Position numbers and translations under genes: made by a program. A DNA stretch of 63,258 bases, filler included, from Nemertoderma westbladi (Eukaryota > Animalia > Xenacoelomorpha), in assembly GCA_032718475.1 (NCBI GenBank). It is 4 parts of 4 records of this genome, joined end to end, with 100 filler letters (N's around TTAATTAATTAA, not from the genome) between each part and the next. Parts side by side here need not be neighbours in the genome. Positions count along the whole stretch, not along the records: positions 22,923 to 50,219 come from JAUCBJ010007577.1; 3 more parts are not named here. One strand, written 5' to 3'. This document shows positions 4,323-55,679 of the stretch, piece after piece; the first letter of the stretch is position 1, and the number at the start of each line of letters is the position of its first letter. The notes beneath the pieces are model-generated. The model did no database searches, was not told the DNA's origin, and saw only the letters and a list, made by a program, of their open reading frames with translations.

Positions 4323-5215
4323 CCCGGGCGCACCCGGGCACGTTGTCTCGCTCACTCATTGTGGGCCTTCATTAAATCTACCCGGGCGCGGGGTCACGCT
4401 CACTCCCTGTGGGCCTTTATTAAATCTACCCGGGCACGGGGTCACGCTCACTCCATGTGGGCCTTTTTTAAATCTACCCGGGCGCGGGGTCACGCTCACT
4501 CTTTGTGGGCTTTATAAAATGTACCCGGGCGCGGGGTCACGCTCACTCTTAGTGGGCCTATATTAAATCTACCCGGGCGCGGGGTCACGCTCGCTCTTGG
4601 TGGGCCTTTGTTGGATCTACCCGGGCGCGGGGTCACGCTCACTCTTAGTGGGCCTTTATTAAATCTACCCGGGCGCGGGGTCACGCTCACTCTTAGTGGG
4701 CCTTTATTAAATCTACCCGGGCGCGGGGTCACGCTCACTCTTAGTGGGCCTTTATTAAATCTACCCGGGCGCGGGGTCACGCACACTCTTAGTGGGCCTT
4801 TATTAAATCTACCGGGGCGCGGGGTCACGCTCACTCTTTGTGGGCCTTTATTAAATCTACCCGGGCGCGGGGTCACGCTCACTCTTTGTGGGCCTTTATT
4901 AAATCTACCCGGGCGCGGGGTCACGCTCACTCTTAGTGGGCCTTTATTAAATCTACCCGGGCGCGGGGTCACGCTCACTCTTAGTGGGCCTTTATTAAAT
5001 CTACCCGGGCGCGGGGTCACGCTCACTCTTAGTGGGCCTTTATTAAATCTACCCGGGCGCGGGGTCACGCTCACTCTTAGTGGGCCTTTATTAAATCTAC
5101 CCGGGCGCGGGGTCACGCTCACTCTTAGTGGACCTTTATTAAATCTACCCGGGCGCGGGGTCACGCTCACTCTTAGTGGGCCTTTATTAAAACTACACCG
5201 GGCGCGGGGTCACAC
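4323..5215. repeat. 48-bp GC-rich minisatellite (~18 copies) in the presumed LINE 3' UTR
   Basis: Unit CTCACTCTTAGTGGGCCTTTATTAAATCTACCCGGGCGCGGGGTCACG; period 48 (4761 to 4809). Confidence 0.97.
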
Positions 5216-22822: not shown

Positions 22823-22922
22823 NNNNNNNNNNNNNNNNNNNNNNNNNNNNNNNNNNNNNNNNNNNNTTAATTAATTAANNNNNNNNNNNNNNNNNNNNNN
22901 NNNNNNNNNNNNNNNNNNNNNN
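22823..22922. other. Artificial contig linker
   Basis: N-run, TTAATTAATTAA (stops in all six frames), N-run; 100 bp; the same structure occurs three times. Confidence 0.95.
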
Positions 22923-25900
22923 TACTTACCTAAACAGCCCCATAAGGTGGACTTACTTACCTAAACAGCCCCATAAGGTGGACTTACTTACCTAAACAGC
23001 CCCATAAGGTGGACTTACTTACCTAAACAGCCCCATAAGGAGGACTTACTTACCTAAACAGCCCCATAAGGTGGACTTACTTACCTAAACAGCCCCATAA
23101 GGTGGACTTTCTTACCTAAACAGCCCCATAAGGTGGACTTTCTTACCTAAACAGCCCCATAAGGAGGACTTACTTACCTAAACAGCCCCATAAGGTGGAC
23201 TTTCTTACCTAAACAGCCCCATAAGGTGGACTTACTTACCTAAACAGCCTCATAAGGAGGACTTACTTACCTAAACAGCCTCATAAGGAGGACTTACTTA
23301 CCTAAACAGCCCCATAAGGAGGACTTACTTACCTAAACAGCCCCATAAGGTGGACTTACTTACCTAAACAGCCCCATAAGGTGGACTTACTTACCTAAAC
23401 AGCCCCATAAGGTGGACTTACTTACCTAAACAGCCCCATAAGGTGGACTTACTTACCTAAACAGCCCCATAAGGTGGACTTACTTACCTAAACAGCCCCA
23501 TAAGGAGGACTTACTTACCTAAACAGCCCCATAAGGTGGACTTACTTACCTAAACAGCCCCATAAGGTGGACTTACTTACCTAAACAGCCCCATAAGGAG
23601 GACTTACTTACCTAAACAGCCCCATAAGGAGGACTTACTTACCTAAACAGCCCCATAAGGAGGACTTACTTACCTAAACAGCCCCATAAGGAGGACTTAC
23701 TTACCTAAACAGCCCCATAAGGTGGACTTACTTACCTAAACAGCCCCATAAGGAGGACTTACTTACTTACCTAAACAGCCCCATAAGGAGGGCTTACTTA
23801 CCTAAACAGCCCCATAAGGAGGACTTACTTACCTAAACAGCCCCATAAGGTGGACTTTCTTACCTAAACAGCCCCATAAGGTGGACTTACTTACCTAAAC
23901 AGCCCCATAAGGAGGACTTACTTACCTAAACAGCCCCATAAGGTGGACTTACTTACCTAAACAGCCCCATAAGGTGGACTTACTTACCTAAACAGCCCCA
24001 TAAGGAGGACTTACTTACCTAAACAGCCCCATAAGGTGGACTTACTTACCTAAACAGCCCCATAAGGTGGACTTACTTACCTAAACAGCCCCATAAGGAG
24101 GACTTACTTACCTAAACAGCCCCATAAGGAGGACTTACTTACCTAAACAGCCCCATAAGGAGGACTTACTTACCTAAACAGCCCCATAAGGAGGACTTAC
24201 TTACCTAAACAGCCCCATAAGGTGGACTTACTTACCTAAACAGCCCCATAAGGAGGACTTACTTACTTACCTAAACAGCCCCATAAGGAGGGCTTACTTA
24301 CCTAAACAGCCCCATAAGGAGGGCTTACTTACCTAAACAGCCCCATAAGGAGGACTTACTTAAAACCTAAACAGCCCCATAAGGAGGGCTTACTTACCTA
24401 AACAGCCCCATAAGGTGGACTTACTTACCTAAACAGCCCCATAAGGAGGACTTACTTACCTAAACAGCCCCATAAGGTGGACTTACTTACCTAAACAGCC
24501 CCATAAGGTGGACTTTCTTACCTAAACAGCCCCATAAGGTGGACTTACTTACCTAAACAGCCCCATAAGGAGGACTTACTTACCTAAACAGCCCCATAAG
24601 GTGGACTTTCTTACCTAAACAGCCCCATAAGGTGGACTTACTTACCTAAACAGCCTCATAAGGAGGACTTACTTACCTAAACAGCCTCATAAGGAGGACT
24701 TACTTACCTAAACAGCCCCATAAGGTGGACTTACTTACCTAAACAGCCCCATAAGGTGGACTTACTTACATAAACAGCCCCATAAGGTGGACTTACTTAC
24801 CTAAACAGCCCCATAAGGAGGACTTACTTACCTAAACAGCCCCATAAGGTGGACTTACTTACCTAAACAGCCCCATAAGGTGGACTTTCTTACCTAAACA
24901 GCCCCATAAGGTGGACTTTCTTACCTAAACAGCCCCATAAGGTGGACTTACTTACCTAAACAGCCCCATAAGGTGGACTTACTTACCTAAACAGCCCCAT
25001 AAGGAGGACTTACTTACCTAAACAGCCCCATAAGGTGGACTTTCTTACCTAAACAGCCCCATAAGGTGGACTTACTTACCTAAACAGCCCCATAAGGAGG
25101 ACTTACTTACCTAAACAGCCCCATAAGGTGGACTTTCTTACCTAAACAGCCCCATAAGGTGGACTTACTTACCTAAACAGCCCCATAAGGAGGACTTACT
25201 TACCTAAACAGCCCCATAAGGTGGACTTTCTTACCTAATCAGCCCCATAAGGTGGACTTACTTACCTAAACAGCCTCATAAGGAGGACTTACTTACCTAA
25301 ACAGCCTCATAAGGAGGACTTACTTACCTAAACAGCCCCATAAGGAGGACTTACTTACCTAAACAGCCCCATAAGGAGGACTTACTTACTTACCTAAACA
25401 GCCCCATAAGGAGGGCTTACTTACCTAAACAGCCCCATAAGGAGGGCTTACTTACCTAAACAGCCCCATAAGGAGGACTTACTTAAAAACCTAAACAGCC
25501 CCATAAGGAGGGCTTACTTACCTAAACAGCCCCATAAGGAGGGCTTACTTACCTAAACAGCCCCATAAGGAGGACTTACTTACCTAAACAGCCCCATAAG
25601 GTGGACTTACTTACCTAAACAGCCCCATAAGGTGGACTTTCTTACCTAAACAGCCCCATAAGGTGGACTTACTTACCTAAACAGCCCCATGAGGAGGACT
25701 TACTTACCTAAACAGCCCCATAAGGTGGACTTACTTACCTAAACAGCCCCATAAGGTGGACTTACTTACCTAAACAGCCCCATAAGGTGGACTTTCTTAC
25801 CTAAACAGCCCCATAAGGTGGACTTACTTACCTAAACAGCCCCATAAGGAGGGCTTACTTACCTAAACAGCCCCATAAGGAGGACTTACTTAAAAACCTA

Positions 25901-28900
25901 AACAGCCCCATAAGGAGGGCTTACTTACCTAAACAGCCCCATAAGGTGGACTTACTTACCTAAACAGCCCCATAAGGAGGACTTACTTACCTAAACAGCC
26001 CCATAAGGTGGACTTTCTTACCTAAACAGCCCCATAAGGTGGACTTACTTACCTAAACAGCCCCATAAGGAGGACTTACTTACCTAAACAGCCCCATAAG
26101 GTGGACTTTCTTACCTAAACAGCCCCATAAGGTGGACTTACTTACCTAAACAGCCTCATAAGGAGGACTTACTTACCTAAACAGCCTCATAAGGAGGACT
26201 TACTTACCTAAACAGCCCCATAAGGTGGACTTACTTACCTAAACAGCCCCATAAGGTGGACTTACTTACCTAAACAGCCCCATAAGGTGGACTTACTTAC
26301 CTAAACAGCCCCATAAGGAGGACTTACTTACCTAAACAGCCCCATAAGGTGGACTTTCTTACCTAAACAGCCCCATAAGGTGGACTTACTTACCTAAACA
26401 GCCCCATAAGGAGGACTTACTTACCTAAACAGCCCCATAAGGTGGACTTTCTTACCTAAACAGCCCCATAAGGTGGACTTACTTACCTAAACAGCCTCAT
26501 AAGGAGGACTTACTTACCTAAACAGCCTCATAAGGAGGACTTACTTACCTAAACAGCCCCATAAGGTGGACTTACTTACCTAAACAGCCCCATAAGGTGG
26601 ACTTACTTACCTAAACAGCCCCATAAGGTGGACTTACTTACCTAAACAGCCCCATAAGGAGGACTTACTTACCTAAACAGCCCCATAAGGTGGACTTACT
26701 TACCTAAACAGCCCCATAAGGTGGACTTACTTACCTAAACAGCCCCATAAGGAGGACTTACTTACCTAAACAGCCCCATAAGGAGGACTTACTTACCTAA
26801 ACAGCCCCATAAGGTGGACTTTCTTACCTAAACAGCCCCATAAGGTGGACTTACTTACCTAAACAGCCCCATAAGGAGGACTTACTTACCTAAACAGCCC
26901 CATAAGGTGGACTTTCTTACCTAAACAGCCCCATAAGGTGGACTTACTTACCTAAACAGCCTCATAAGGAGGACTTACTTACCTAAACAGCCTCATAAGG
27001 AGGACTTACTTACCTAAACAGCCCCATAAGGTGGACTTACTTACCTAAACAGCCCCATAAGGTGGACTTACTTACCTAAACAGCCCCATAAGGTGGACTT
27101 ACTTACCTAAACAGCCCCATAAGGAGGACTTACTTACCTAAACAGCCCCATAAGGTGGACTTACTTACCTAAACAGCCCCATAAGGTGGACTTTCTTACC
27201 TAAACAGCCCCATAAGGTGGACTTTCTTACCTAAACAGCCCCATAAGGTGGACTTACTTACCTAAACAGCCCCATAAGGTGGACTTACTTACCTAAACAG
27301 CCCCATAAGGAGGACTTACTTACCTAAACAGCCCCATAAGGTGGACTTTCTTACCTAAACAGCCTCATAAGGAGGACTTACTTACCTAAACAGCCTCATA
27401 AGGAGGACTTACTTACCTAAACAGCCCCATAAGGTGGACTTTCTTACCTAAACAGCCCCATAAGGTGGACTTACTTACCTAAACAGCCTCATAAGGAGGA
27501 CTTACTTACCTAAACAGCCCCATAAGGAGGACTTACTTACCTAAACAGCCCCATAAGGTGGACTTACTTACCTAAACAGCCCCATAAGGTGGACTTACTT
27601 ACCTAAACAGCCCCATAAGGAGGACTTACTTACCTAAACAGCCCCATAAGGAGGACTTACTTACCTAAACAGCCCCATAAGGAGGACTTACTTACCTAAA
27701 CAGCCCCATAAGGAGGACTTACTTACCTAAACAGCCCCATAAGGTGGACTTACTTACCTAAACAGCCCCATAAGGAGGACTTACTTACTTACCTAAACAG
27801 CCCCATAAGGAGGGCTTACTTACCTAAACAGCCCCATAAGGAGGGCTTACTTACCTAAACAGCCCCATAAGGAGGACTTACTTAAAAACCTAAACAGCCC
27901 CATAAGGAGGGCTTACTTACCTAAACAGCCCCATAAGGTGGACTTACTTACCTAAACAGCCCCATAAGGAGGACTTACTTACCTAAACAGCCCCATAAGG
28001 TGGACTTTCTTACCTAAACAGCCCCATAAGGTGGACTTACTTACCTAAACAGCCCCATAAGGAGGACTTACTTACCTAAACAGCCCCATAAGGTGGACTT
28101 ACTTACCTAAACAGCCCCATAAGGTGGACTTACTTACCTAAACAGCCCCATAAGGTGGACTTTCTTACCTAAACAGCCCCATAAGGTGGACTTACTTACC
28201 TAAACAGCCCCATAAGGAGGGCTTACTTACCTAAACAGCCCCATAAGGTGGACTTACTTACCTAAACAGCCTCATAAGGAGGACTTACTTACCTAAACAG
28301 CCTCATAAGGAGGACTTACTTACCTAAACAGCCCCATAAGGTGGACTTACTTACCTAAACAGCCCCATAAGGTGGACTTACTTACCTAAACAGCCCCATA
28401 AGGAGGACTTACTTACCTAAACAGCCCCATAAGGTGGACTTACTTACCTAAACAGCCCCATAAGGTGGACTTTCTTACCTAAACAGCCCCATAAGGTGGA
28501 CTTACTTACCTAAACAGCCTCATAAGGAGGACTTACTTACCTAAACAGCCCCATAAGGAGGACTTACTTACCTAAACAGCCCCATAAGGTGGACTTACTT
28601 ACCTAAACAGCCCCATAAGGAGGACTTACTTACCTAAACAGCCCCATAAGGTGGACTTTCTTACCTAAACAGCCCCATAAGGTGGACTTACTTACCTAAA
28701 CAGCCCCATAAGGTGGACTTTCTTACCTAAACAGCCCCATAAGGTGGACTTACTTACCTAAACAGCCTCATAAGGAGGACTTACTTACCTAAACAGCCTC
28801 ATAAGGAGGACTTACTTACCTAAACAGCCCCATAAGGTGGACTTACTTACCTAAACAGCCCCATAAGGTGGACTTACTTACCTAAACAGCCCCATAAGGT

Positions 28901-31900
28901 GGACTTACTTACCTAAACAGCCCCATAAGGAGGACTTACTTACCTAAACAGCCCCATAAGGTGGACTTACTTACCTAAACAGCCCCATAAGGTGGACTTA
29001 CTTACCTAAACAGCCCCATAAGGAGGACTTACTTACCTAAACAGCCCCATAAGGAGGACTTACTTACCTAAACAGCCCCATAAGGTGGACTTTCTTACCT
29101 AAACAGCCCCATAAGGTGGACTTACTTACCTAAACAGCCCCATAAGGAGGACTTACTTACCTAAACAGCCCCATAAGGTGGACTTTCTTACCTAAACAGC
29201 CCCATAAGGTGGACTTACTTACCTAAACAGCCTCATAAGGAGGACTTACTTACCTAAACAGCCTCATAAGGAGGACTTACTTACCTAAACAGCCCCATAA
29301 GGTGGACTTACTTACCTAAACAGCCCCATAAGGTGGACTTACTTACCTAAACAGCCCCATAAGGAGGACTTACTTACCTAAACAGCCCCATAAGGTGGAC
29401 TTACTTACCTAAACAGCCCCATAAGGTGGACTTTCTTACCTAAACAGCCCCATAAGGTGGACTTTCTTACCTAAACAGCCCCATAAGGTGGACTTACTTA
29501 CCTAAACAGCCCCATAAGGTGGACTTACTTACCTAAACAGCCCCATAAGGAGGACTTACTTACCTAAACAGCCCCATAAGGTGGACTTTCTTACCTAAAC
29601 AGCCTCATAAGGAGGACTTACTTACCTAAACAGCCTCATAAGGAGGACTTACTTACCTAAACAGCCCCATAAGGTGGACTTTCTTACCTAAACAGCCCCA
29701 TAAGGTGGACTTACTTACCTAAACAGCCTCATAAGGAGGACTTACTTACCTAAACAGCCCCATAAGGAGGACTTACTTACCTAAACAGCCCCATAAGGTG
29801 GACTTACTTACCTAAACAGCCCCATAAGGTGGACTTACTTACCTAAACAGCCCCATAAGGAGGACTTACTTACCTAAACAGCCCCATAAGGAGGACTTAC
29901 TTACCTAAACAGCCCCATAAGGAGGACTTACTTACCTAAACAGCCCCATAAGGAGGACTTACTTACCTAAACAGCCCCATAAGGTGGACTTACTTACCTA
30001 AACAGCCCCATAAGGAGGACTTACTTACTTACCTAAACAGCCCCATAAGGAGGGCTTACTTACCTAAACAGCCCCATAAGGAGGGCTTACTTACCTAAAC
30101 AGCCCCATAAGGAGGACTTACTTAAAAACCTAAACAGCCCCATAAGGAGGGCTTACTTACCTAAACAGCCCCATAAGGTGGACTTACTTACCTAAACAGC
30201 CCCATAAGGAGGACTTACTTACCTAAACAGCCCCATAAGGTGGACTTTCTTACCTAAACAGCCCCATAAGGTGGACTTACTTACCTAAACAGCCCCATAA
30301 GGAGGACTTACTTACCTAAACAGCCCCATAAGGTGGACTTACTTACCTAAACAGCCCCATAAGGTGGACTTACTTACCTAAACAGCCCCATAAGGTGGAC
30401 TTTCTTACCTAAACAGCCCCATAAGGTGGACTTACTTACCTAAACAGCCCCATAAGGAGGGCTTACTTACCTAAACAGCCCCATAAGGAGGACTTACTTA
30501 AAACCTAAACAGCCCCATAAGGAGGGCTTACTTACCTAAACAGCCCCATAAGGTGGACTTACTTACCTAAACAGCCCCATAAGGTGGACTTTCTTACCTA
30601 AACAGCCCCATAAGGTGGACTTTCTTACCTAAACAGCCCCATAAGGTGGACTTACTTACCTAAACAGCCCCATAAGGTGGACTTACTTACCTAAACAGCC
30701 CCATAAGGAGGACTTACTTACCTAAACAGCCCCATAAGGTGGACTTTCTTACCTAAACAGCCCCATAATGTGGACTTACTTACCTAAACAGCCCCATAAG
30801 GAGGACTTACTTACCTAAACAGCCCCATAAGGTGGACTTACTTACCTAAACAGCCCCATAAGGTGGACTTACTTACCTAAACAGCCCCATAAGGTGGACT
30901 TACTTACCTAAACAGCCTCATAAGGAGGACTTACTTACCTAAACAGCCTCATAAGGAGGACTTACTTACCTAAACAGCCCCATAAGGTGGACTTACTTAC
31001 CTAAACAGCCCCATAAGGTGGACTTACTTACCTAAACAGCCCCATAAGGTGGACTTACTTACCTAAACAGCCCCATAAGGAGGACTTACTTACCTAAACA
31101 GCCCCATAAGGTGGACTTTCTTACCTAAACAGCCCCATAAGGTGGACTTACTTACCTAAACAGCCTCATAAGGAGGACTTACTTACCTAAACAGCCTCAT
31201 AAGGAGGACTTACTTACCTAAACAGCCCCATAAGGTGGACTTACTTACCTAAACAGCCCCATAAGGTGGACTTACTTACCTAAACAGCCCCATAAGGTGG
31301 ACTTACTTACCTAAACAGCCCCATAAGGAGGACTTACTTACCTAAACAGCCCCATAAGGTGGACTTACTTACCTAAACAGCCCCATAAGGTGGACTTTCT
31401 TACCTAAACAGCCCCATAAGGTGGACTTTCTTACCTAAACAGCCCCATAAGGTGGACTTACTTACCTAAACAGCCCCATAAGGTGGACTTACTTACCTAA
31501 ACAGCCCCATAAGGAGGACTTACTTACCTAAACAGCCCCATAAGGTGGACTTTCTTACCTAAACAGCCCCATAAGGTGGACTTACTTACCTAAACAGCCC
31601 CATAAGGAGGACTTACTTACCTAAACAGCCCCATAAGGTGGACTTACTTACCTAAACAGCCCCATAAGGTGGACTTACTTACCTAAACAGCCCCATAAGG
31701 TGGACTTACTTACCTAAACAGCCCCATAAGGTGGACTTACTTACCTAAACAGCCCCATAAGGTGGACTTACTTACCTAAACAGCCCCATAAGGAGGACTT
31801 ACTTACCTAAACAGCCCCATAAGGTGGACTTACTTACCTAAACAGCCCCATAAGGTGGACTTACTTACCTAAACAGCCCCATAAGGAGGACTTACTTACC

Positions 31901-34017
31901 TAAACAGCCCCATAAGGAGGACTTACTTACCTAAACAGCCCCATAAGGAGGACTTACTTACCTAAACAGCCCCATAAGGAGGACTTACTTACCTAAACAG
32001 CCCCATAAGGTGGACTTACTTACCTAAACAGCCCCATAAGGAGGACTTACTTACTTACCTAAACAGCCCCATAAGGAGGGCTTACTTACCTAAACAGCCC
32101 CATAAAGAGGGCTTACTTACCTAAACAGCCCCATAAGGAGGACTTACTTAAAAACCTAAACAGCCCCATAAGGAGGGCTTACTTACCTAAACAGCCCCAT
32201 AAGGTGGACTTACTTACCTAAACAGCCCCATAAGGAGGACTTACTTACCTAAACAGCCCCATAAGGTGGTTTTCTTACCTAAACAGCCCCATAAGGTGGA
32301 CTTACTTACCTAAACAGCCCCATAAGGAGGACTTACTTACCTAAACAGCCCCATAAGGTGGACTTACTTACCTAAACAGCCCCATAAGGTGGACTTACTT
32401 ACCTAAACAGCCCCATAAGGTGGACTTTCTTACCTAAACAGCCCCATAAGGTGGACTTACTTACCTAAACAGCCCCATAAGGAGGGCTTACTTACCTAAA
32501 CAGCCCCATAAGGAGGACTTACTTAAAAACCTAAACAGCCCCATAAGGAGGGCTTACTTACCTAAACAGCCCCATAAGGTGGACTTACTTACCTAAACAG
32601 CCCCATAAGGAGGACTTACTTACCTAAACAGCCCCATAAGGTGGACTTTCTTACCTAAACAGCCCCATAAGGTGGACTTACTTACCTAAACAGCCCCATA
32701 AGGAGGACTTACTTACCTAAACAGCCCCATAAGGTGGACTTAATTACCTAAACAGCCCCATAAGGAGGACTTACTTACCTAAACAGCCCCATAAGGAGGG
32801 CTTACTTACCTAAACAGCCCCATAAGGAGGGCTTACTTACCTAAACAGCCCCATAAGGAGGACTTACTTACCTAAACAGCCCCATAAGGAGGGCTTACTT
32901 ACCTAAACAGCCCCATAAGGTGGACTTACTTACCTAAACAGCCCCATAAGGTGGACTTACTTACCTAAACAGCCCCATAAGGAGGGCTTACTTACCTAAA
33001 CAGCCCCATAAGGTGGACTTACTTACCTAAACAGCCCCATAAGGAGGACTTACTTACCTAAACAGCCCCATAAGGAGGACTTACTTACCTAAACAGCCCC
33101 ATAAGGTGGACTTACTTACCTAAACAGCCCCATAAGGAGGACTTACTTACCTAAACAGCCCCATAAGGAGGACTTACTTACCTAAACAGCCCCATAAGGT
33201 GGACTTACTTACCTAAACAGCCCCATAAGGTGGACTTACTTACCTAAACAGCCCCATAAGGTGGACTTACTTACCTAAACAGCCCCATAATGTGGACTTA
33301 CTTACCTAAACAGCCCCATAAGGAGGACTTACTTACCTAAACAGCCCCATAAGGTGGACTTACTTACCTAAACAGCCCCATAAGGTGGACTTACTTACCT
33401 AAACAGCCCCATAAGGAGGACTTACTTACCTAAACAGCCCCATAAGGTGGACTTACTTACCTAAACAGCCCCATAAGGTGGACTTACTTACTTACCTAAA
33501 CAGCCCCATAAGGAGGGCTTACTTACCTAAACAGCCCCATAAGGTGGACTTACTTACCTAAACAGCCCCATAAGGTGGACTTACTTACCTAAACAGCCCC
33601 ATAAGGAGGACTTACTTACCTAAACAGCCCCATAATGTGGACTTACTTACCTAAACAGCCCCATAAGGAGGACTTACTTACCTAAACAGCCCCATAAGGA
33701 GGACTTACTTACCTAAACAGCCCCATAAGGAGGACTTACTTACTTACCTAAACAGCCCCATAAGGAGGGCTTACTTACCTAAACAGCCCCATAAGGTGGA
33801 CTTACTTACCTAAACAGCCCCATAAGGAGGACTTACTTACCTAAACAGCCCCATAAGGTGGACTTACTTACCTAAACAGCCCCATAAGGAGGGCTTACTT
33901 ACCTAAACAGCCCCATAAGGTGGACTTACTTACCTAAACAGCCCCATAAGGAGGGCTTACTTACCTAAACAGCCCCATAAGGTGGACTTACTTACCTAAA
34001 CAGCCCCATAAGGAGGA
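22923..34017. repeat. 31-bp satellite (~350 copies) derived from the V-ATPase exon/intron junction
   Basis: Plus-strand unit CTTACTTACCTAAACAGCCCCATAAGG(A/T)GGA, period 31. The last copy is the end of the coding exon itself. Confidence 0.98.
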
Positions 34018-35416
34018 TGATATATCGGCCTCCGAACAACATCAACCACATCTCGTTGGTGGATTTCTCCGCCAGGAATTTCTTCTCATTGATTACCATC
34101 CAGAGTGCGAACAGGAACATAATGGAGCCGTGGCCGCAGTCGCCGAACATAACGGCGAAGAGGAAGGGGAATGTGATGAGGGTGAATGGCGCGGGGTTGA
34201 TCTCGCGGTAGTCGGCCACCCCGTAGGCGTCGACGATGGCCTGGAAGCCGTTGGTGAACTTGTTGGTTCGGTGGTACGTGGGCGGGGTGCGTCGGGTCGC
34301 CATGGTGTTTATGATGGCGGGTATATCGGTCCCGCTCCGCTCGGTGCCGCGTCGAGCCGCCAGGTTCACTCGGTCCAACTCGCTCGACGGACACCAACCC
34401 TCCGCGATTATAGCCTTCTGCGTGTTACAGAGATTGAGCGTGTGGTAGACGGCCTTTATCTTCTTCACTTTACGGAACCACACCCGTATAGACCTCGCGG
34501 CGTTGCTGAGCAGCCTGGTCTGGTGCTCCGCGGTCTGGGACAGCACCGTCTGTATGTCCTCGATCCGGGTCATCACGCCCATGGACATCTCGCGCCGTTC
34601 CGCTTGGCTCTCCGGACACGGGTACATCGTCGCTTTATAACCCTCGCAGATCTTTCGAACTTTCGTCTTCAGCTGTTCCCCCTGGAAGAAAATGATGAAG
34701 ACGCATTTGGAGACCTCCTCGCCGGTGACGGGGTCCTCTAACGGGGTCTCTATTTCGGTCTGGCGGAGGAACACGTTCCCGCGACAAGCGCGCCACAACA
34801 TGCGTTCGAACGAGGGAACCCGTTCCCTCGCGATCACGCCTGCGATGAAGCCGAACTTGGGCGACTGTTGCGAGTCGCCGGAAGAACTTCCGATCGGCGC
34901 CTCCGCGCTCAGCAACGAGGTGCTCATCGACTCCTCCGAGCGGCTCGTCTGACCCAACGTCAACTGCGCTTCGTCGAAAAAGGTCTGCGTCTTACGGAGA
35001 ATGTGTTTCAACTCGGTCAACTCCAACTTGTTCTTCATCAACGTCTCCTTATTGGAATTAACTTCCTTCAACTCGTTCTCTAACTTCTCGAAGGTCAACT
35101 CGAGGTTGAACATCTCGCTGGGCATCGGCGTCTCCGGGTTTTCCCCGCTGTCCGGCGGCGACTGGTTTATACACTTGCGGCATTCCTTCTCGATGTAGCG
35201 GAGTTTCCGTTCCATCTCATCGCAGCGGCGCACCTCGTTGATGTACTTCCGTTGGAACTCGTTCACGTTCTCGTTTAGGTCCGAGAACTGCACGAGGCCA
35301 AGCTCTCCGAATTCCGACACACACGCGTACGCAGAGTCGTTCTGTAGAAACATCTGGATCCGCGTCATCTCCTCCGAACGGAAAGATATACCGACGTCTC
35401 GCTCTGAGATATTCAT
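33996..35416 (-). CDS. ATP6V0A: V-type proton ATPase V0 subunit a (116 kDa / Vph1 family), first coding exon, ending in phase 2
   Basis: [106 protein letters not shown]. Ends TTT AG|GTAAGT. The paralogue number cannot be assigned. Confidence 0.96.
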
Positions 35417-36890
35417 AGCTCGTTTTGTTAGTCTCAGTAGGCCAAAGTCCAGAAGTCTGAATATCAGTACAGCAGTACTGCAGTAAGTAGAGCATGTACA
35501 GAACTGCTGAACTACTGAACTACAGCAGTACCGGTAGAGGATGACCGTGACAGAGTGACTGGGTGTATGTCAGTATGTAGGCCTACCTGCCTACTGCTGC
35601 ACTGCTGTAGTATGGTGGCCGTTGCTGCCACTATAAAACTCTTGATAAAATATTTAAATAATAAATAAGTGGAAAAAATATCTTGAAGAAAAAATAATAA
35701 AAAAAAATATATCTTAAAAAAAATCAGTAAAATAAAATATCTTAAAAAAAATCAGTATAATATAATATCTTTAAAAAAATCTCAGTTTTAAATAATATCT
35801 TGAAAAAAAAGGTAAAAAAATACTCAGGAAAAATTTCCATAAAAAATAAATACTGTTAACATCCCACGTGGCCCAGGGCTGCCATCACCCCATAATCAGA
35901 TAACAGTTGGCCCATGCCCATGGCTGCCATTAAAAAAACTAACAGTAAAAAAAATAAAATACCCCCTCGTGGCCAAGGGAGGGTTGCCACTGCCCCCAGA
36001 ATCAGTAATAGTATTGGCCCATGGCTGCCATTCCATTAATACAACTAATAGTAAAAAAAAATAAAATACCACCTCGTGGCCCACCGCTGGAATTGGAATT
36101 GTTTTATTGACATCAAAGTATGAAAACGAAAGTAAATGTGGTAGAGTATAAACTAACACCGACATAAGAAACACATAATTTAAGACGGACTTGCACATGA
36201 GATACTACCGGTAGTTCGAGTTATACTAAAATATAAATGAAATATGATGTCGGGGATAGCCCCATGAGACAATGTCTTGTTTCCATGGGGGTCCCCTGGA
36301 AATACATGTCCAGTAGTTTAAAACTAAATGAAAGAACACATTAAAATATCACGCGGATTATTAAAATATTTTACTTAAAATTCCTACAGTATAAAGATTT
36401 ACTAAAATGAGTTAAATAAAAGGACATACATTAAAAGTATAACGATTTAATAAAAAGATTTGGTATAAAATAAGCATATACTGTAATATAATATAAATAA
36501 ATAGAAATCGGTAAAGAGGCAGATATTTTGGCGACACACATAATTTGGATTGTTTAAAATACATTAAAATAATTACCCGGGTTGAAGCATTAAAATATGA
36601 CGGACAATATGATGGACAGTATAGGTGGACAACTATATAGGCCACTTAAGTAAATTATTATTAAATATTAGTAATATTACTAAATATATTAAATTATATT
36701 ATATTATATTATATATATTATATTAAAAAGATATTAAATTATTAAAGAAAAAAATTATATTTAATAATAGTCAATAATCCAATCTTAATAATAACCAAAA
36801 AATAAAAAAGATCCTGCTACCACTATGGCAGTAATGTGGTACTTACTACCTGCATTTTGCAACGTTAGGCCTATTGCTGACCGAACGAAA

Positions 36891-38644: not shown

Positions 38645-41617
38645 AGCCGCGTTGTCACTTATGACACCCTCTTGGCCCTCTAGGCGATAGTTAGACAACA
38701 GTGACACCATTGCGTATCGGATTGATTAATTAGGATAATCAATTAAACCCTAATTAGGAGTCGTAAGACACCTATTGGGGTTTAATTGTACTAATTAATT
38801 GATGACACCTGTCAATTAGGGTCTAATTGGCCTATTTAGGAGGTGTCACCCAGACAGTCTGGCGCCAGTCAGTGGGGTCCAACTGTCGCTGAGCCGCCCA
38901 AGACCCTACTACTCCCGATAAACATAGCCTATTCATTACTTAGTTGATCAAGAGTGGGTTGGTTTAGCCCCGTCAACTAAATAAGTCATTGAGGGCTATA
39001 GCGCCTAGGGCACCATTGAAGGCAAAGGCTTGATGCGCATCTGCATTAGAGATGATACACGCCCCGCCCTGTCTATACTGGATGCTCTTCTACCAGTGTT
39101 AGGTAACCTAACCCAGGAGGCACACTTGGCTCAGGGTGTAACAAATGGACCCCAACTGTGTAACAAATCAACCAATGACTAGACATGCTGACAAGGTCGG
39201 CGGAAGGTAATCAACCAACGGCGACCTACTGCGAAGACGCTTGTAGGAGTTGCGACCCCAAGCGGTTTACTCCCGCAACTGAAAGATATGAGTATAAGAA
39301 CCCTCCAGGAGAAATACCGGCTCGGTCGTCGCCCGGGTCAACAAGGACCGCGTCCCTCAGTGGTACACCAGGCTGGGATCGATAAATTGGCTACTGGAAC
39401 GGAAGACAGAGAAGAAAGAAGAACCAACCTGTTGAAATGTAAAAAGACACTAAAGATTGCTAAAGATTGCTGATTGAACGCACGCACGCTGAAAACACAT
39501 ACCAAACAGGGTGACATGGTCGCTCTGGCAATGGAATATAACATCGACATCATCTGCATCCAAGAACATCGGATTTGTCATGAAGACACTGCCATGAAGT
39601 ACAATGCATTGGAAATGAATGGATGTTAGTAACAAGCTCAGCAGTAAGAAACTCGGCCAATGCATCAATTGGTGGAGTAGGAATTCTGCTAAGCCCATTT
39701 GCACTTAAGACCCTAAACAACATCGAATCTATAAATTCCAGGGTTATGATAGCAACATTTGATGCTACAGTCCAACCAATGCCTCAGAGACAGAACAAGC
39801 AGTCAAGTTTTATGAAGAACTGACTGGACTTATAAAGGACATTCCGAAACATAATGTTAAAGTCATTGCTGGTGACCTGAATGCGCAAATTGGCCCAGAA
39901 GACATCAAGGGTTACACCTATAACACCAGTTCTAACAGAAATGGGTACTTACTTTTCAACCTAATGGAAGAATGTGAATTGATACCAACAAACAACACAT
40001 TCGAAAAGAGTAAGGGGAAGCTATGGACCTTTCAATACCCCAATGGAACCAAAGCACAACTGGATTACATCCTTATAAACAAAAAGTGGAGAAACAGCAT
40101 GATCAACTGCGAGGCATACAGCTCGTTCAACCTAATTGGTTCGGACCACAGAATTGTGACTGCAGAGATCAGACTCTGTTTGAGAGCCAGCAAATCCAGG
40201 ACAAGCAAGCAAATCAAATATGACTGGGAGAAACTCAGAACTGACAATGCTGTAAAGGATGCTTATATAGTAGAAGTTCAAAACCGCTTTGAAGCACTTC
40301 AGTCAATGGATGAAGACCAATCCACCAATTCAATATACCAGAATATAATAACAGCCCACAAGGAAACAGCTAAGAGGCATATCCCCCAGAAACCTAAACG
40401 AAAACAGTATGTGCCATGGCAAAACTCTGAGGTTACTTGTAAGAGAGAAGATCTTAAGATAGCCTACAAAGTTAAAATCGAAAAACCAACAACCGAAAAC
40501 ATTAACAAGGTTGAGAAAGCTAAGGACGATCTTAAATTGGCCTACAACATCAGCCAGGAAAAGTTCATACAGGATAAAACTGAAGCAATTACAACTGCTC
40601 ACATACAGCAACAATCAAGACTTACCTGGCAAACTGTAAATGAGGTATCTGGTCGGAAAAGTTGTGCAAAGGGGCGCCTCAAAGCCGATAGTCCTGAAGA
40701 ACGTGTTGGGAAGTGGACAAATCACTTCAGCAACTTGGTGGGCAGCCACCAAACATCGAGGTCAGCCCTACAAGGAAAATATATGACAAGACACTACCTA
40801 TAGAAACAGGGGGTTTCACACCTGCCGAACTCCAAAGAAGCCTTAAAAGCATGTCCAATAATAAAGCGAGTGGATTAGATGAAATCCCAGCGGAGGTATG
40901 GAAAACCGGAGTTCTAAACAGACCATTATTGAATGTTTGCAACAGGTTGGATTGCATATAAATGCTACAAAGACCGAATTCATGACCTTTAATGTTGATG
41001 GAAACTTGACAACCATTGGTAATAATCAACTACGGAAGGTCGATGACTTCCAGTACCTTGGATCATGGATAGAGAGTAGCAAAAAGGACATAGAAGTTAG
41101 GAAAGCAAAGGCTTGGGTAGCTCTATCAAAAATGGATACCATCTGGAAATCAGATCTCTCCAGGCACCTGAAGACTAAGTTCTTTCGAGCCACAGTGGAA
41201 AGTGTATTTTTATACGGGGGTGAGACCTGGATATTGACTAAATCACTTGAACAACGAATTGATGGTTGCTACACAAGACTACTAAGGGCAGCCCTAAACA
41301 TCAGCTGGAGACAACACATGACAAACGCCGAGCTTTATGGTACAATACCTGCAGTATCAACCACCCTCCGTGAACGCAGATTAAGATTCAGTGGGCACTG
41401 CTGGCGAAGTAAAGACAAGGTCATACCAGATCTACTTCTCTGGCAACCAACTCATGGAAAGCGTAGTCGTGGACGACCGGCCATAACATATATAGATCAA
41501 CTTGAAAGGGATACTGAACTTGGGAGAAACGAAATTGCGACAACTATGGAGAATCGGGAAACCTGGAAGGATCTCATTTCCACTGTCCGAGTTCGCTCGA
41601 CCTAGTAGTAGTAGTAA
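38645..41617 (+). mobile_element. RTE-clade LINE with frameshifts and an internal deletion of the RT core; (TAG)n tail
   Basis: APE motifs NARTL, DIICIQEHR, GGVGILL, AGDLNAQIG, QLDYIL, GSDHRIV. KASGLDEIPAEVWK then jumps to VGLHINATKTE, FQYLGS, LRFSGHCWR, RGRP. TAGTAGTAGTAG at 41603. The 5' boundary is approximate. Confidence 0.9.
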
Positions 41618-42169
41618 TACTGTAATTATTTATTACTTGGGAATTTTATTTTTAAATTGGTACTTTTTCGTTGCTAAATTCTTTATAAAGATAACCGATT
41701 GTAGGCTAGGCTACTACTGTTTTACTCCTTATACTCAAAGTTAATTAAATAATTTAGTGTTCTCGGGTACTACTTATTATGTATAACTAGAGAGCCGCTT
41801 AAATACATAAAACCAATATTGGATATTGAGTTCCGTTTTGGAGTTCGTCTTGTAGTGTAGACACTAGTAAAGTTGCAATAACATTTACAAAAATGGCGTT
41901 CAATGTAGCAAGCTCTTTTAACACGTAATGAAATTCAAGTAGGCCTAATTCCACCCAAAATATTTTATTTTACTTATTTCGCCGGGAAAAAAGTAAAATC
42001 AATGCCATAGGGTTACTTTTTTCCCTATGGAAAAAAGTTATCTGTTTTTCCTCCCGATTTTGGGGTTCGAGCCCGATTCCCGATTCGAGCAAAAAAGTAA
42101 TAATTTAAGAATAAAATATTTTAAACTCAGAAAAGGGAAAAGTCTGACAATCACCACACCACCGTAATT

Positions 42170-42486
42170 AAAATAATGTTGTTTGTGTTAAAATAATGTT
42201 GTTTGTGTTAAAATAATGTTGTTTGTGTTAAAATAATGTTGTTTGTGTTAAAATAATGTTGTTTGTGTTAAAATAATGTTGTTTGTGTTAAAATAATGTT
42301 GTTTGTGTTAAAATAATGTTGTTTGTGTTAAAATAATGTTGTTTGTGTTAAAATAATGTTGTTTGTGTTAAAATAATGTTGTTTGTGTTAAAATAATGTT
42401 GTTTGTGTTAAAATAATGTTGTTTGTGTTAAAATAATGTTGTTTGTGTTAAAATAATGTTGTTTGTGTTAAAATAATGTTGTTTGT
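42170..42486. repeat. 20-bp minisatellite (AAAATAATGTTGTTTGTGTT)n, ~16 copies
   Basis: Perfect tandem repeats. Confidence 0.97.
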
Positions 42487-43078: not shown

Positions 43079-43253
43079 TTAAAATAATGTTGTTTGTGTT
43101 AAAATAATGTTGTTTGTGTTAAAATAATGTTGTTTGTGTTAAAATAATGTTGTTTGTGTTAAAATAACGTTGTTTGTGTTAAAGTAATGTTGTTTGTGTT
43201 AAAATAATGTTGTTTGTGTTAAAATAATGTTGTTTGTGTTAAAATAATGTTGT
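43079..43253. repeat. Second block of the same 20-bp minisatellite, ~8-9 copies
   Basis: Same unit and orientation. Confidence 0.97.
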
Positions 43254-45268: not shown

Positions 45269-46616
45269 CGTTTGGTTTGTATTCTGTTTGAGTATTCTGT
45301 ACGGGTAGCGTAATATTTATTATTCAGAGTTTATGCGGTTATTCGCAACATTCATGTCCCCAAGTTTATTCCTACAGTAATTGTGCTTGTTATACATACC
45401 GTTATAGTTAAACTAACCCCGGTACTACATTAGGGCTGCTTGGCGTAGGTAAAGACTGGAGATTTTGTGCTTCGGTCACTCCAGCAGATGCCGTGGTTCT
45501 TTTAACTGTTCAAGTATATTTAACTACTGATTATTTGTTATACCGGTACTTGTACCTAATTTAGGGTTTAGTGTACAGTGCTTTCCGAAGTAATTAGTGT
45601 AGGCAGTATATTTGTGTTGTAAAGTAGTTGATAGGCACATTCGTTAGCTCTATTAGCTTCTGGGTAGGAACAATCCGTGATACATAATGTAGTACCTATA
45701 GCGATACGGTTATAGGTCGTCAGGCGGTGGTATTTTCCTATCTGGACAGTACAGTATATTTACTACTACTTATTATTTCAAATACCGTAGTACCCTGTCC
45801 GTTGTAATAACCAGAATTCTAACCCTTTGTTAGGCTGGTTTGTAGACTTCCTGTAAAATTACCCTAAAAAATTTCGTACGTAATATTTTGTTGTGTTTAA
45901 TTAGAGAATTAATCTCACCAATATCGTAAGTAATTTGTAGTATTAAGTAACTTAGGTAAATTAGAATTATCAGTTTTAGTGTCAAATAAATAGCACTTCA
46001 CTGAGAGCGCACAGCTTCCGTGTAGTGACCCCCAGAAATAATAACATTTATTTCAAATATTGACAAAACCCCTTTTAAACGGGTATATATCTATTATAAA
46101 TCAACTCAAAAGATTTATAAATAGTAGGCCTGTCATACAACAACTAGGTCTCACTACCAGTTGGACTACTGCTTAAATAACGGTAATAAAGTACGTTAAA
46201 GTAACTAAGTAACCCTAAAATATTCAGGAATTCAATTATTCTAAAAATAATTGACATACCGGTACTTACTATAGGCTTATTATATTTATCTCTATAAATT
46301 TGAGCTGAAATCATACCGGTACTCTGTAATTAATTCTAGGTCATAATTATACTTATATATACTACTGTACTATAAGTGTAAACTGTATACCGGTATTCAC
46401 GATAGGCCTATTATATATTTATATATATCTGTGCTAAATTTATATACCGGTACTCTGTGACAAACCTAGTTCACAATACTTATATATATTATAAGTGCAT
46501 ACCGGTATTCTAATATACTGCAATAAATTACCGGTACTAGGCCAGTGGTTATACTGAATTACTAGACTTGCTTTAACTGTAACTATAGCAGTAAGCCTTC
46601 AACTGTATAGCTAAAC

Positions 46617-49244
46617 ATGTCTGACACTCAGCAAAACCTGTCAGACAGTCTGATCGATACAACTATCTGTGATTCAGATAGGAGTGTGGAGCGAATAAGA
46701 AAGGAGTTCGGCTCACCTCCTACTGTAAAAAAGGTCATCCCTCCAGTAGTATCAGACCCTAGGCTAGTCCACCATAGGTCCATCATAGGCACTCGGGCGC
46801 AGGTCAAACGGAACCAAGAGGCAGCTGTCCTATCGCAGCAACATCTTGGTCAAGAACCTACTTCCCAGCGATCCGATAGCTCCAGCAGTTCGGATACTGT
46901 AGAGCTGACCCCCGAAGGCGGAGTGCAGATGGCTGCTACAGTCTACTCGGACCCCCTTCTTACCCTTCCTGCTGCAGTGCTAACTACTATATTCATTGCG
47001 GTTGAAGAACATCAAGCCGACTGGGCGAGGAATAAGCGAGCGACCCAAGACAATTACGCGGGATACGCCAGGGAAGAATTGATATCTATTGTTGAATCAC
47101 AATGGAACTTTCCCGGACTCGGACTCCCGTTGGATCTGTCTGAGGCTACTTGGGAAGATATACACAGGATGGGAGTGGCTAAAGATACAATGGATCCAGC
47201 TGTTTGGAAGAGGTCAGCAGCAGGATATGTGCAGGGATTCTTCGGATCCTTGGATCGATTGGAAGAACAACTGTTTCGACAACCTCACGGACCTCAAGAG
47301 CAGGAAGAACTGCTATATCAAATACGCGAAAGAACCCTACGCATACGACTAATCCTCTCAGCCTTTGAGGAAACTTCCAAAAGAAGACAGGACACGTCGC
47401 TGCAGGTTGCTGTCAAAACTTGGCTACATCGAGTAGATCTCAAAGTACAGGAAACGGCCCAGTGGAAATCCCAGCTGGCTGAGAGATCAACCTATGAAGA
47501 ACCAACTGATGTCACCCTTGCTCAAGCGGAAAGCGAAGAGGCCGCCGAGAAACCGCGAACTAGAGACGCTATCGACATTTATTTGTCCGACTATCAGCGA
47601 TTCCTAGGAGACGAAGAGTTGAGGAGACGGCTGTCTGGACTTTCCCCTAATAGTGAAGGAACCAAGCTTGTGTTGGACTCAATCGATGCCGAAATGTTAG
47701 CTGCAAACCAAGCTGAATGTGATGAAAAACTCCGCCTCACTAGAGTCCGAGAAGAACAAATAAAGAAAAGAAGGATAGAGGAACAAAAGGCGGCGGCTAT
47801 GGCGGCGGCTATGGCAGAAGCAGAAGCAGAAAGAATAGCAGCAAGGGTAGCAGCGGCAGAAGCAGAAGCAAAAGGAAGGGCAGCGGCGGCAGAAGCAAAG
47901 GCAGAAAGGGCAGTGGCCGAAGCAGAACGGAGAGCCTCTGAGCAGACTACCCAACTGGAGTTGGAAAATCTGCAAGAGACACAAGACAGTATAAATAAAC
48001 AGTTTACTGCTAATCAAATGCAGATGATGAGAAAATCTACTCCCAAGCGCCAGGGATACACATCCTCGGAGGAAGGCGAGACCACCGATCCTGAAGGCGG
48101 AGGAAATAGATCTCATCTAAGTAGGCGTAGAAAAACATCTTACCGTCGCAAATTGCCTGATTTGCCCCCAGCTGTTAAAAGGCAGCTAACTAGCACAGAC
48201 TTAGGTCGTGCAGAACCCATAGAACAATTCATCCAGGTCAAAAGACTCCCTACTATAGTCGATGAACCTGAAATCATTAGGCCTGTTGTTCCCAAAGTCA
48301 CTTCTGTGCTAGAGACCCCTACACTTCTAGAGCTTAACTCTAAATTCCCTTTACATAGTACTACACTGCCTGTACCCGGTGGAACCGTCCATGCAAATAC
48401 CCCTGTCCAGACAGCAGAGAGAGAAATCAATAATTTGTCTCCCGTCGTCCCGCGTCAGCCCGCTACTATGTTGGCGACTCCCGCTTCGGCGGTTGAGTGG
48501 GTGGAAGAGGGACGGCGGGGGATGAATCTCCTGCTGGGACAGATGCAGGAGACTGTCCACCAACTTAAGGGAACAGTGAGGGAAGGTAGAGCAGAGTTGC
48601 AAGAGGTGCAGCAAAGTATCGCGCTAGAACGCGACAAATTAGTCAATATCAAAAAGGGCATACCAATACCCCCTGTAACATTGTGTCAACCTGTTAGGTC
48701 TGAAGTATTACATGCGCAAGGTGTGGAGCCTACACGCATCTATACTGCTAGTGAAGTTGAAACTCCTATAGCAAACCCTATTAAGGGTGATTATAGGCCT
48801 GTTATTAATGATATTCCCTATAGAACTGATAATGATCCGAGAAATTTATATACCGATAATTCGATATTAAATAACACGATGGCCCAAGAAAGCTTTACGC
48901 GTCAGATGGCTAGAACAGAAGCCCGCCAAGCTGTCAAAGTGGGAGAGATCGTCAAATTCAATGGAGATGAGATGAAATGGTTACCTTTCAACGAATATTA
49001 CAAAGATAGCATACAGAACTCTGTACTATCTAACGGAGAGAAACTTAGATTCCTCATCAAGTGTTTGGAAGGACCTCCCAAGTTAATGGCGTTAAAGTTT
49101 ATTGGACATCCAGAAGGATTAAGACAAGTTTGGGATACAGTGGTTCGCAGTGTCTCCATGGTCACGTTCATCTTCTCGCGGGTTTCTGCGAGACTCCAGG
49201 AGGAGCCGAAGATGTTTAACGATTTGGAGAAGCAATCGTTGTAG
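46617..49244 (+). CDS. BEL/Pao-like gag ORF, truncated at ~49140 and reading through into antisense V-ATPase exon sequence
   Basis: 875 aa open frame with an Ala/Glu coiled coil. C-terminal [28 protein letters not shown] fits the DUF1759-type gag pattern. No zinc knuckle or pol follows. Confidence 0.72.
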
Positions 49245-49262
49245 AGGAGGCCAGTGTAGACG
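49141..49262 (-). CDS. ATP6V0A: V-ATPase subunit a, next coding exon (apparently truncated)
   Basis: Acceptor ..TACATTACAG|C GTC TAC ACT GGC gives (S)[22 protein letters not shown]. This is the conserved continuation of LLMGLF, and the phase matches (AG+C = Ser). Confidence 0.9.
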
Positions 49263-49988
49263 CTGTAATGTATAAAGGTATCAATAAACCCATCAACACA
49301 TAAAGTAAAAATACATTTTCTTCGGTCGTGGCCAGGGATTACGCACAAAGTCTGACGACTTATTTACTGTGCCCAAATTCGAACACTCAAGTTAGTTACA
49401 ATTAATTTGTGGGACAAGCTACAAAGCAAGACAGCCTTAGCATATGGGTACCATTAACGAGTTGTCTGTCGTGGTCGTCTGTCGTGAATTTTTGAGAGCT
49501 AATAACTCGGTTATTACTTGATCAAATTAAACCAAACTTGGTACTGGTACGTACGTATGTAGTCCGTCAAAGGTTTAGAAAGAACCTGAAGGTTGGTGAA
49601 AAACGAACGAACGCAACGAGTTTTGCAGTGGACCATCTGCCATAAATCAGCAGTTACTCGCCCATATTGGAGATTTTGCATGGTTATAAAGGTCGTCAGT
49701 CTGCGTTTGGGAAATTTGAGTTTGACAACGTTTGACAAAACAGGACGAGTGCAACGAAGTTAATGAAGGAGGAGAAGATTATTGTAAAAATAAAAATGTC
49801 ATGCTTAACTTAAATAGCCATAGTTAGTAGTTTTACAAATGACAGTTAAAGTGTAAAAGGGAGAACTGAAATGGATCTCTGTTTTTTACAACCAGTTTAA
49901 CGCAAACTGAAAGCATCACTCAATATATTTTTGGAAAGACAGTTTTCAAATATCTAATAAAGACTGGTATACTTTCTTATATAGCCGG

Positions 49989-50219
49989 TTACCTAAACAA
50001 CCCCATAAGGAGGACTTACTTACCTAAACAGCCCCATAAGGAGGACTTACTTACCTAAACAGCCCCATAAGGAGGACTTACTTACCTAAACAGCCCCATA
50101 AGGAGGACTTACTTACCTAAACAGCCCCATAAGGTGGACTTTCTTACCTAAACAGCCCCATAAGGTGGACTTACTTACCTAAACAGCCTCATAAGGAGGA
50201 CTTACTTACCTAAACAGCC
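49989..50219. repeat. Same 31-bp splice-junction satellite, ~7 copies running into the contig end
   Basis: Same unit and orientation as 22923-34017, with a unique-sequence boundary at ~49989. Confidence 0.97.
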
Positions 50220-50319
50220 NNNNNNNNNNNNNNNNNNNNNNNNNNNNNNNNNNNNNNNNNNNNTTAATTAATTAANNNNNNNNNNNNNNNNNNNNNNNNN
50301 NNNNNNNNNNNNNNNNNNN
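50220..50319. other. Artificial contig linker
   Basis: N-TTAATTAATTAA-N. Confidence 0.95.
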
Positions 50320-50354: not shown

Positions 50355-52404
50355 AAATAGACACCTAAGTTCTGTATATTGTGGTAATTAGATGCAGTGT
50401 AGTCTTGTGGTAAATAGACACTTGAGTTCTGTATACAGTATTGTGGTAATTGGACGCAGTATAGTGTTGTGGTAATTAGACACTTGTGTTCTGTATATTG
50501 TGGTAATTATACGCAGTATAGTGTTGTGGTAATTAGACACTTGCGTTCTGTATATTGTGGTAATTAGATTCAGTATAGTGTTGTGGTAAATAGACACCTA
50601 AGTTCTGTATATTGTGGTAATTAGACGCAGTATAGTGTTGTGGTAATTAGAGACTTGCGTTCTGTATAGTGTGGTAATTATACGCAGTATAGTGTTGTGG
50701 TAATTAGACACTTGCGTTCTGTATATTGTGGTAATTAGATGCAGTGTAGTCTTGTGGTAAATAGACACCTAAGTTCTGTATATTGTGGTAATTAGACGCA
50801 GTATAGTGTTGTGGTAATTAGACACTAGCGTTCTGTATGTTGTGGTAATTAGACGCAGTATAGTGTTGTGGTAATTAGAGACTTGCGTACTGTATAATTG
50901 TGGTAATTAGATGCCATTGTAAAATAATATTGTGGTAATTAGATGCAGTGTGTAGTCTTGTGGTAAATAGATTGTGGTAACTAGACTCAGTATATTGTTG
51001 TGGTAATTAGAGACTTGCGTTCTGTATAATTGTGGTAATTAGATGCCATTGTAAAATAATATTGTGGTAATTAGATGCAGTGTGTAGTCTTGTGGTAAAT
51101 AGATTGTGGTAACTAGACGCAGTATATTGTTGTGTGGTAATTAGAGACTTGCGTTCTGTATATTGTGGTAATTAGATGCCATTGTAAAATAATATTGTGG
51201 TAATTAGATGCAGTGTAGTCGTAGTCCTTATGGTAAATAGACACCTAAGTTATGTATATTGTGGTAATTAGACGCAGTATAGTGTTGTGGTAATTAGACA
51301 CTTGCGTTCTGTATATTGTGGTAATTAGACTCAGTATAGTGTTGTGGTAATTAGACACTTGCGTTCTGTATATTGTGGTAATTAGACGCAGTATAGTGTT
51401 GTGGTAATTAGACACTTGCGTTCTGTATATTGTGGTAATTAGACGCAGTATAGTGTTGTGGTTATTAGACACTTGCGTTCTGTATATTGTGGTAATTAGA
51501 CGCAGTAGTCTTGTGGTAAATAGACACCTAAGTTCTGTATATTGTGGTAATTAGACGCAGTATAGTGTTGTGGTAATTAGACACTTGCGTTCTGTATATT
51601 GTGGTAATTAGACGCAGTATAGTGTTGTGGTAATTAGACACTTGCGTTCTGTATATTGTGGTAATTAGACGCAGTATAGTGTTGTGGTAATTAGACACTT
51701 GCGTTCTGTATATTGTGGTAATTAGACGCAGTATAGTGTTGTGGTAATTAGACACTTGCGTTCTGTATATTGTGGTAATTAGACGCAGTATAGTGTTGTG
51801 GTAATTAGACACTTGCGTTCTGTATATTGTGGTAATTAGACGCAGTATAGTGTTGTGGTAATTAGACACTTGCGTTCTGTATATTGTGGTAATTAGACAC
51901 TTGCGTTCTGTATATTGTGGTAATTAGATGCAGAGTTAGTCTTGTGGAAAATATACACTTGAGTTCTGTATATTGTGGTAATTAGACGCAGTATAGTCTT
52001 GTGGTAATTAGACACGTTCTGTATATTGTGGTAATTAGATGCAGTGTAGTCTTGTGGTAAATAGACACTTGAGTTCTGTATATTGTGGCGTACAGTAATT
52101 CTAGACGCAGTATAGTGATGTGGTAATTAGACACTTGCGTTCTGGATGTGGTAAATACAGTAGATGCAGTGTAGTCTTGTGGTAAATAGACACCTAAGTT
52201 CTGTATATTGTGGTAATTAGATGCAGTTAGTCTTGTGGTAAATAGACACTTGAGTTCTGTATATTGTGGTAATTAGACGCAGTATAGTGTTGTGGTAATT
52301 AGACACTTGCGTTCTGTATACAGGTATAGGCCTATTGTGGTAATTAGACACTTGCGTTCTGTATATTGTGGTAATTAGATGCCATTGTAAAATAATATTG
52401 TGGT
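50355..52404. repeat. Complex satellite with TTGTGGTAATTAGA core (about 57-bp dimer unit)
   Basis: The core recurs every ~26-31 bp with a few alternating spacers. Confidence 0.95.
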
Positions 52405-55665: not shown

Positions 55666-55679
55666 TATATATATTGTAT

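Follow-up and report, generated by a model that had tools for sequence, protein, structure and literature searches.

A 31-bp minisatellite of at least 356 units repeating an exon-intron junction of a V-ATPase subunit a gene in Nemertoderma westbladi

The window analyzed here is a stretch of 63,258 nt from the genome of Nemertoderma westbladi (GCA_032718475.1), of which positions 22923-50219 are JAUCBJ010007577.1. It holds a gene for V-ATPase subunit a in which the boundary between the first coding exon and the following intron is the first unit of a 31-bp tandem array of at least 356 units, so that an almost unchanged splice donor recurs hundreds of times downstream of the real one. The array is most probably a selectively neutral junction minisatellite of variable length, tolerated through upstream-first use of donors. 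Four sequencing runs (X1 to X4) were compared with the window as assembled contigs and word depths. X2 and X4 are from one sample (S2), and X3 is from a third sample, recorded as 'DNA?'. The window may itself derive from X1 and X2, which would then not be independent of it.

The array lies at positions 22923-34017 on the minus strand and is a head-to-tail repeat with a unit of minisatellite size (Tandem Repeats Finder: period 31, 355.9 copies, 95% matches). Most of the 356 units obtained by splitting it on the gene strand have 31 nt (338); 14 have 35 nt, two have 34 nt and one has 30 nt, and a single 29-nt unit owes its length to truncation by a gap. Each unit consists of 22 exon and 9 intron bases of the V-ATPase subunit a junction, as a sequence-only reading of the window had described it. 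The count of about 350 copies given in that reading agrees with the window and is a minimum, because the array runs into the assembly gap at 22823-22922; a further 7.5 units of the same array, its far (3') end, lie at 49989-50219 on the minus strand, adjoining the gap at 50220-50319. If both array ends belong to one intron, the intron is at least 12 kb long. A 21-mer of the unit gives 363 matches in the window, compared with 0.01 in shuffled sequence. The donor is preserved as AG/GTAAGT (slash, exon-intron boundary) in 300 of the 356 units and as AG/GTAAGA in 46, so that 346 units carry an intact donor; in the others, GT is followed by T runs (8 units) or the donor reads GTAATT (1) or has lost the AG (1). 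The variant unit form GTAAGAAAG is present in 46 copies. A second GTAAGT occurs in 267 units and GTAAGC in 32. The sequence-only reading was therefore correct that most copies keep a consensus donor and that many carry a second one. Higher-order blocks are present, 38 identical units recurring 72 units apart (the longest in 500 shuffles was at most 13), as would be expected from unequal exchange. Outside the array, tandem repeats make up 21% of the window, and a repeat falling on a junction thus needs no special cause.

Coding exon 1 (33996-35416, minus strand, 1,421 nt) starts with the ATG at 35416 and ends in a phase-2 donor at 33996/33995. It corresponds to positions 2-445 of the Pfam family V_ATPase_I. 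The following exon, of which the first 123 nt are present (49140-49262, minus strand), starts at position 445 of the same family (445-488), and is preceded by a non-array 3' part of the intron (49263-49988, minus strand, 726 nt) with its acceptor AG at 49264-49263. Joining the donor 33996/33995 to the acceptor 49263/49262 gives the open frame LMGLFSVYTG. Pfam continuity, a contig joined at 33996 and the open spliced frame all place the real exon-intron boundary in unit 1 (34017-33987), in agreement with the claim that the first unit is the genuine junction. The joined frame agrees with the homologues, as serine follows this phenylalanine in 36 of the 43 that fit the pattern, 77 of the 120 not fitting it. 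The best homologues of the protein are 61-67% identical and are from a hemichordate, a tick, a mollusc, amphioxus, insects and a coral; scoring of 7,987 candidates revealed no close relative. Tblastn with 5 of the 120 homologues did not find the C-terminal half of the gene in the window. At about 34430, three residues between N and T that are present in all 120 listed homologues are missing from exon 1; the X1, X2 and X3 contigs have no indel there, and their absence is therefore not an assembly error. X4 has no contig on exon 1 (34040-35407) despite the presence of 0.86 of the searched words, which is probably a filter effect.

A joined form was seen in a 3,229-nt contig of X3 (record 17), which matches 33996-35556 with 0 differences and then runs on without interruption into exon 2; the loose end is identical to positions 49233-49262, the start of that exon. 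Since the contig passes straight from 33996 to exon 2, the first donor was used and no extra unit was retained. It begins at 35556, 140 nt before the ATG, where the X1 and X2 contigs extend further, and X3 has a repeat-to-gene depth ratio of 2.9, compared with 1.1e4-4.8e4 in X1, X2 and X4; on these two grounds we infer that X3 is RNA and its joined contig mRNA. The most upstream donor is thus the one in the only joined form seen, a single contig presumed to be of RNA origin. Assembled contigs lose rare forms, which bears on all splicing observations from X3, and for this reason minor leaky use of later donors is possible. No X3 contig falls in the array bin 33926-33982, and the uncovered part is not counted as evidence; by computation, whole-array read-through of 0.1% would give a word depth near 30 in X3. 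Past the junction the contig has 1,665 nt, equal to the exon-2 length in the genomic contig of X4 (123 + 1,542) and more than the approximately 1,131 nt that the remainder of the protein would take; the coding sequence is therefore likely to have only one intron, with exon 2 apparently the last exon. A single intron in the coding sequence (33996-35416, 49140-49262) is unusual for an animal V-ATPase a gene, those of vertebrates having about 20 introns, and the gene is possibly a retro-derived paralog or belongs to an intron-poor lineage.

Words of the array reach high depth in X1, X2 and X4. Four X1 array contigs with different unit variants have depths, relative to exon 1, of 1.32-1.44 times the window word counts, which corresponds to about 480-525 units per exon 1; contig depth is not copy number, and all such estimates of array size are rough and may carry library bias. 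The evenness of the ratio across unit variants argues that the unit mix of the window is faithful, and the counts of 1.32-1.44 times those of the window indicate that the array is not over-assembled relative to X1. As the window may derive from X1, this ratio checks the assembly and not a second individual. Sample S2 gave about 35 units in X2 (per exon-1 depth) and 72-92 in X4 (per exon-2 contig depth). The array is likely to vary in length between samples, with about 500 units in one and far fewer in another.

In the window, exon 2 lies on the upstream side of exon 1 and breaks off after 123 nt. At this point it is joined, bluntly and without microhomology (49139/49140), to part of a very high-copy element (45400-49139, plus strand, cut at 49139). 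The element carries a gag-like open reading frame (ORF) from 46611 on, with a weak DUF1759 match (E 0.0012, below the cut-off) and no homologue at E ≤ 0.001 among 236 candidates; we take it to be Bel/Pao-like. Over 49140-49358, contigs from X1, X2 and X4 show 0 differences from the window, and they then extend for 748, 1,534 and 1,542 nt, respectively, in sequence unlike the window; they run past 49140 along the exon, and an intact exon 2 therefore exists. No contig bridging 49139/49140 was found among the 32 matches listed, there being 63,847 more, so that the join is neither supported nor refuted. The depths of exon 1 and of the exon-2 contig are 7.67 and 7.14 in X1, and 38.3 and 24.7 in X2. 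The layout fits about equally well a tandem duplication ending in exon 2, in which case exon 1 of the window would belong to the downstream, intact copy, or a chimeric or circularized molecule. The two array ends (the 22923 side and the 50219 side) do not overlap exactly, and the contig thus forms no clean circle.

These features could be read to mean that the array or the gene copy is largely an assembly product or a dead duplicate, and that the X3 contig represents an intronless DNA copy or an array-free allele. Such a reading would draw on a contig that starts and ends in the array and in which exon 2 is bluntly joined to a retroelement, on the X1, X2 and X4 contigs that pass this join along an intact exon 2, on the 'DNA?' label of X3 and on the far fewer units in S2. 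It is highly improbable, as array words are deep in X1, X2 and X4, and in X1 at the window's own proportions, the X1 exon-1 contig ends within the intron letters of unit 1 (33988), the frame of exon 1 is intact with 0 differences from the X3 contig, and X3 resembles RNA in its repeat-to-gene depth ratio.

Minisatellites that span an exon-intron junction are described in human genes. The class comprises F7 (intervening sequence 7, IVS7), 6-16, CBS (IVS13), LMNB2 and PDGF (PMC1557585). In F7 the variable number tandem repeat (VNTR) has a 37-bp unit in 5-9 copies; the upstream donor alone is used, which was unchanged with up to 12 units, and only downstream sites of perfect consensus competed, whereas in 6-16 and CBS two later donor sites are used as well (PMC1557585). 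The array described here shares three features with that of F7: the boundary lies within unit 1, copies of the donor extend into the intron, and the donor used, in the one joined form seen, is the upstream one. It differs from the class in copy number (356 or more, compared with 5-25) and in lying in an invertebrate-type gene, and from F7 itself in that its donor, TAG/GTAAGT, is one base off the consensus (the F7 donor scores 74) and an in-frame stop would follow at once if any later donor were used. The VNTR in ABCA7 intron 18 has a 25-bp unit that begins with the GT of the donor, and its alleles are up to 10,678 bp long, or about 427 units (PMC5954066). It shares with the present array a tandem unit holding the donor of the exon, a size of hundreds of units and a premature stop upon retention of one unit; in contrast to ABCA7, where the unit includes no exon bases, 22 exon bases are copied here and with them the whole donor including its AG. 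Taken together, the F7 class and the ABCA7 alleles provide precedent for both the kind and the size of the array. The available part of PMC10078293 describes no direct case of such an array, and no invertebrate array of this size turned up in the literature searches, none of which was aimed at invertebrates.

The most probable explanation may be outlined as follows. A 31-bp piece spanning the end of exon 1 and the start of the intron has become tandemly repeated within the intron, and the array would have grown by slippage and unequal exchange. The spliceosome would pick the first donor by an oriented, upstream-first selection as in F7. Some minor leakage to donor 2 or 3 is likely, as in CBS, 6-16 and ABCA7, and its truncated or degraded products would represent a cost and not a device.

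The sequence-only reading had pointed out that any later donor would retain an in-frame stop, and this is so: retention of 4, 31 or 35 nt places a stop at codon 475. Among possible consequences it named dosage control coupled to nonsense-mediated decay (NMD) and a truncated protein. For junction-dependent NMD, the usual rule is that the stop precedes the last junction by more than 50-55 nt. The stop lies 27 nt from it with donor 2 and at least 58 nt from donor 3 on, so that only donor 3 and later donors would meet the NMD distance. The neighboring possibility, which includes the NMD idea, is that long alleles reduce the output of V-ATPase a through leakage to later donors (the stop at codon 475, with NMD from donor 3) or through slower or incomplete splicing, either as a side effect or as control. 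The strong donors in 346 of the 356 units and the stop kept by every later donor are consistent with it. In RNA folding predictions the donors are all about equally unpaired (0.48-0.58), with donor 1 at 0.55 and not specially exposed. The apparently large difference in array length between samples, estimated from depth, points the same way, and in ABCA7 expression fell with length (PMC5954066). Against this, donor 1 is the one used in the joined X3 contig; in the lymphoblastoid lines tested, second-donor use at ABCA7 (one-unit retention, about 2%) was independent of array size, and no link between array size and NMD efficiency was found (PMC5954066); and units added to F7 up to 12 brought no change (PMC1557585). 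The length effect at ABCA7 was skipping of the next exon (PMC5954066); such skipping is unlikely at the present gene, where exon 2 is apparently the last. Nor is there a sign of sparing among the donors: 3 of 11 substitution types fall in the nine donor positions compared with 3.2 expected (indels excluded; low power). Donors are neither spared nor purged among the units, and no selection is visible, at weak power. A length-dependent dosage effect is accordingly regarded as unlikely; NMD-coupled control finds no support in the first-donor junction, the 27-nt distance or the F7 and ABCA7 precedents, and the truncated protein finds none in the only joined form seen.

The same reading was correct that there are hundreds of near-identical donors. 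Its suggestion of U1 sequestration is unsupported: with U1 at about 10^6 copies per mammalian cell, a few thousand nascent sites would fall far short, and titration by one locus is implausible.

As the whole donor with its AG was copied, each unit also reads as an acceptor-donor pair, TTTAG standing immediately before GTAAGT. Known recursive splice sites, in which an acceptor and a donor are juxtaposed, occur singly, are conserved and mostly lie over 1 kb from one another (PMC6110457). The units resemble them in the AG/GT juxtaposition within a long intron, and differ in being many, closely spaced and by-products of repeat copying; they are candidates only. Splicing of donor 1 to any internal AG would rebuild the same donor, so that the intron could be removed stepwise and expansion would be cheap. 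The juxtaposition in nearly all units, 10-11 pyrimidines among the 17 positions from -20 to -4 (10 at the real acceptor), the intron length of at least 12 kb and the definition of recursive sites (PMC6110457) are in line with such a chain, and duplicated AGGT can be spliced (PMC3265369). A GGGG run interrupts the would-be pyrimidine tract, the motif is not spared among the units, and the recursive segments of flies are nearly all longer than 1 kb with conserved sites (PMC6110457). Contigs cannot show intermediates, and since the final mRNA would be identical the X3 contig does not discriminate. Stepwise removal is compatible with the neutral, upstream-first explanation favored here, and is itself considered very doubtful. 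In ATP2A1 an intron was gained by tandem AGGT duplication, removal of the donor-acceptor pair restoring the sequence (PMC3265369). The array is similar in that duplication of AG/GT makes donor-acceptor pairs; the present case differs in that the intron has a 726-nt unique 3' part with its own acceptor, and the array expanded an existing intron and created none. It does not correspond to intron gain by AGGT duplication, in which the intron consists of the duplicated segment and a duplicated AG serves as acceptor: the acceptor used here, at 49263, lies in unique sequence beyond the array, at a distance of 726 nt.

Several points weigh against a neutral array tolerated by first-donor use. X3 is a third sample, recorded as 'DNA?' and seen as assembled contigs, and its junction need not represent splicing across a 500-unit allele. 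Exon 2 is broken in the contig of the window, which leaves the status of this gene copy in doubt. X2 and X4, although from one sample, differ in their estimates (35 and 72-92 units), the denominators being unlike. The F7 site is weaker than TAG/GTAAGT, and at F7 competition did arise from perfect downstream sites (PMC1557585). The lower expression that goes with long ABCA7 alleles (PMC5954066) makes a length effect possible by analogy.

The remainder of the window is rich in repeats. The gaps at 22823-22922, which cuts the array, and at 50220-50319, at the other end of the contig, have no strand and take the same form, 44 N, a 12-nt linker and 44 N; a third at 59294-59393 is identical to them, all three reading 44 N, TTAATTAATTAA, 44 N. 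The contigs joined by these spacers are short, repeat-rich and without gene content in common, and the record may be a string of unplaced contigs, in which adjacency across gaps is not reliable. Neither the array nor the remaining gene parts were found in the flanking contigs of the window by a tandem-repeat scan and tblastn. At 56672-58448, a GC-rich 383-aa ORF (57005-58156, minus strand, no Pfam match at 0.001) lies between 248-bp inverted repeats of 90% identity and looks like a DNA transposon. Frameshifted endonuclease/reverse-transcriptase-like ORFs of the non-long-terminal-repeat retrotransposon type are present at 981-4266 and 39763-41605, the latter with a weak Exo_endo_phos_2 match. 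Further tandem arrays occur at 4332-5213 (48 bp × 18), at 42168-42486 and 43079-43253 (20 bp × 16 and × 9), at 50358-56174 (a 57/89-bp family in both orientations) and at 59639-63258 (26/48/74-bp, to the window end).

With this finding, a curiosity familiar from human genes is seen also in an animal of non-vertebrate type, with an array among the largest known. It would matter more if the array were spliced recursively or if array length set V-ATPase dosage; the strongest form, in which every unit is a working ratchet point in a 12-16 kb satellite intron and allele length (tens to about 500 units) tunes the output of a proton-pump subunit, is held to be quite improbable. The gene offers a convenient natural setting in which to examine whether the upstream donor is chosen first when hundreds of near-consensus donors follow it, and as the units carry variants, the donor or internal acceptor used would be readable from the junction.

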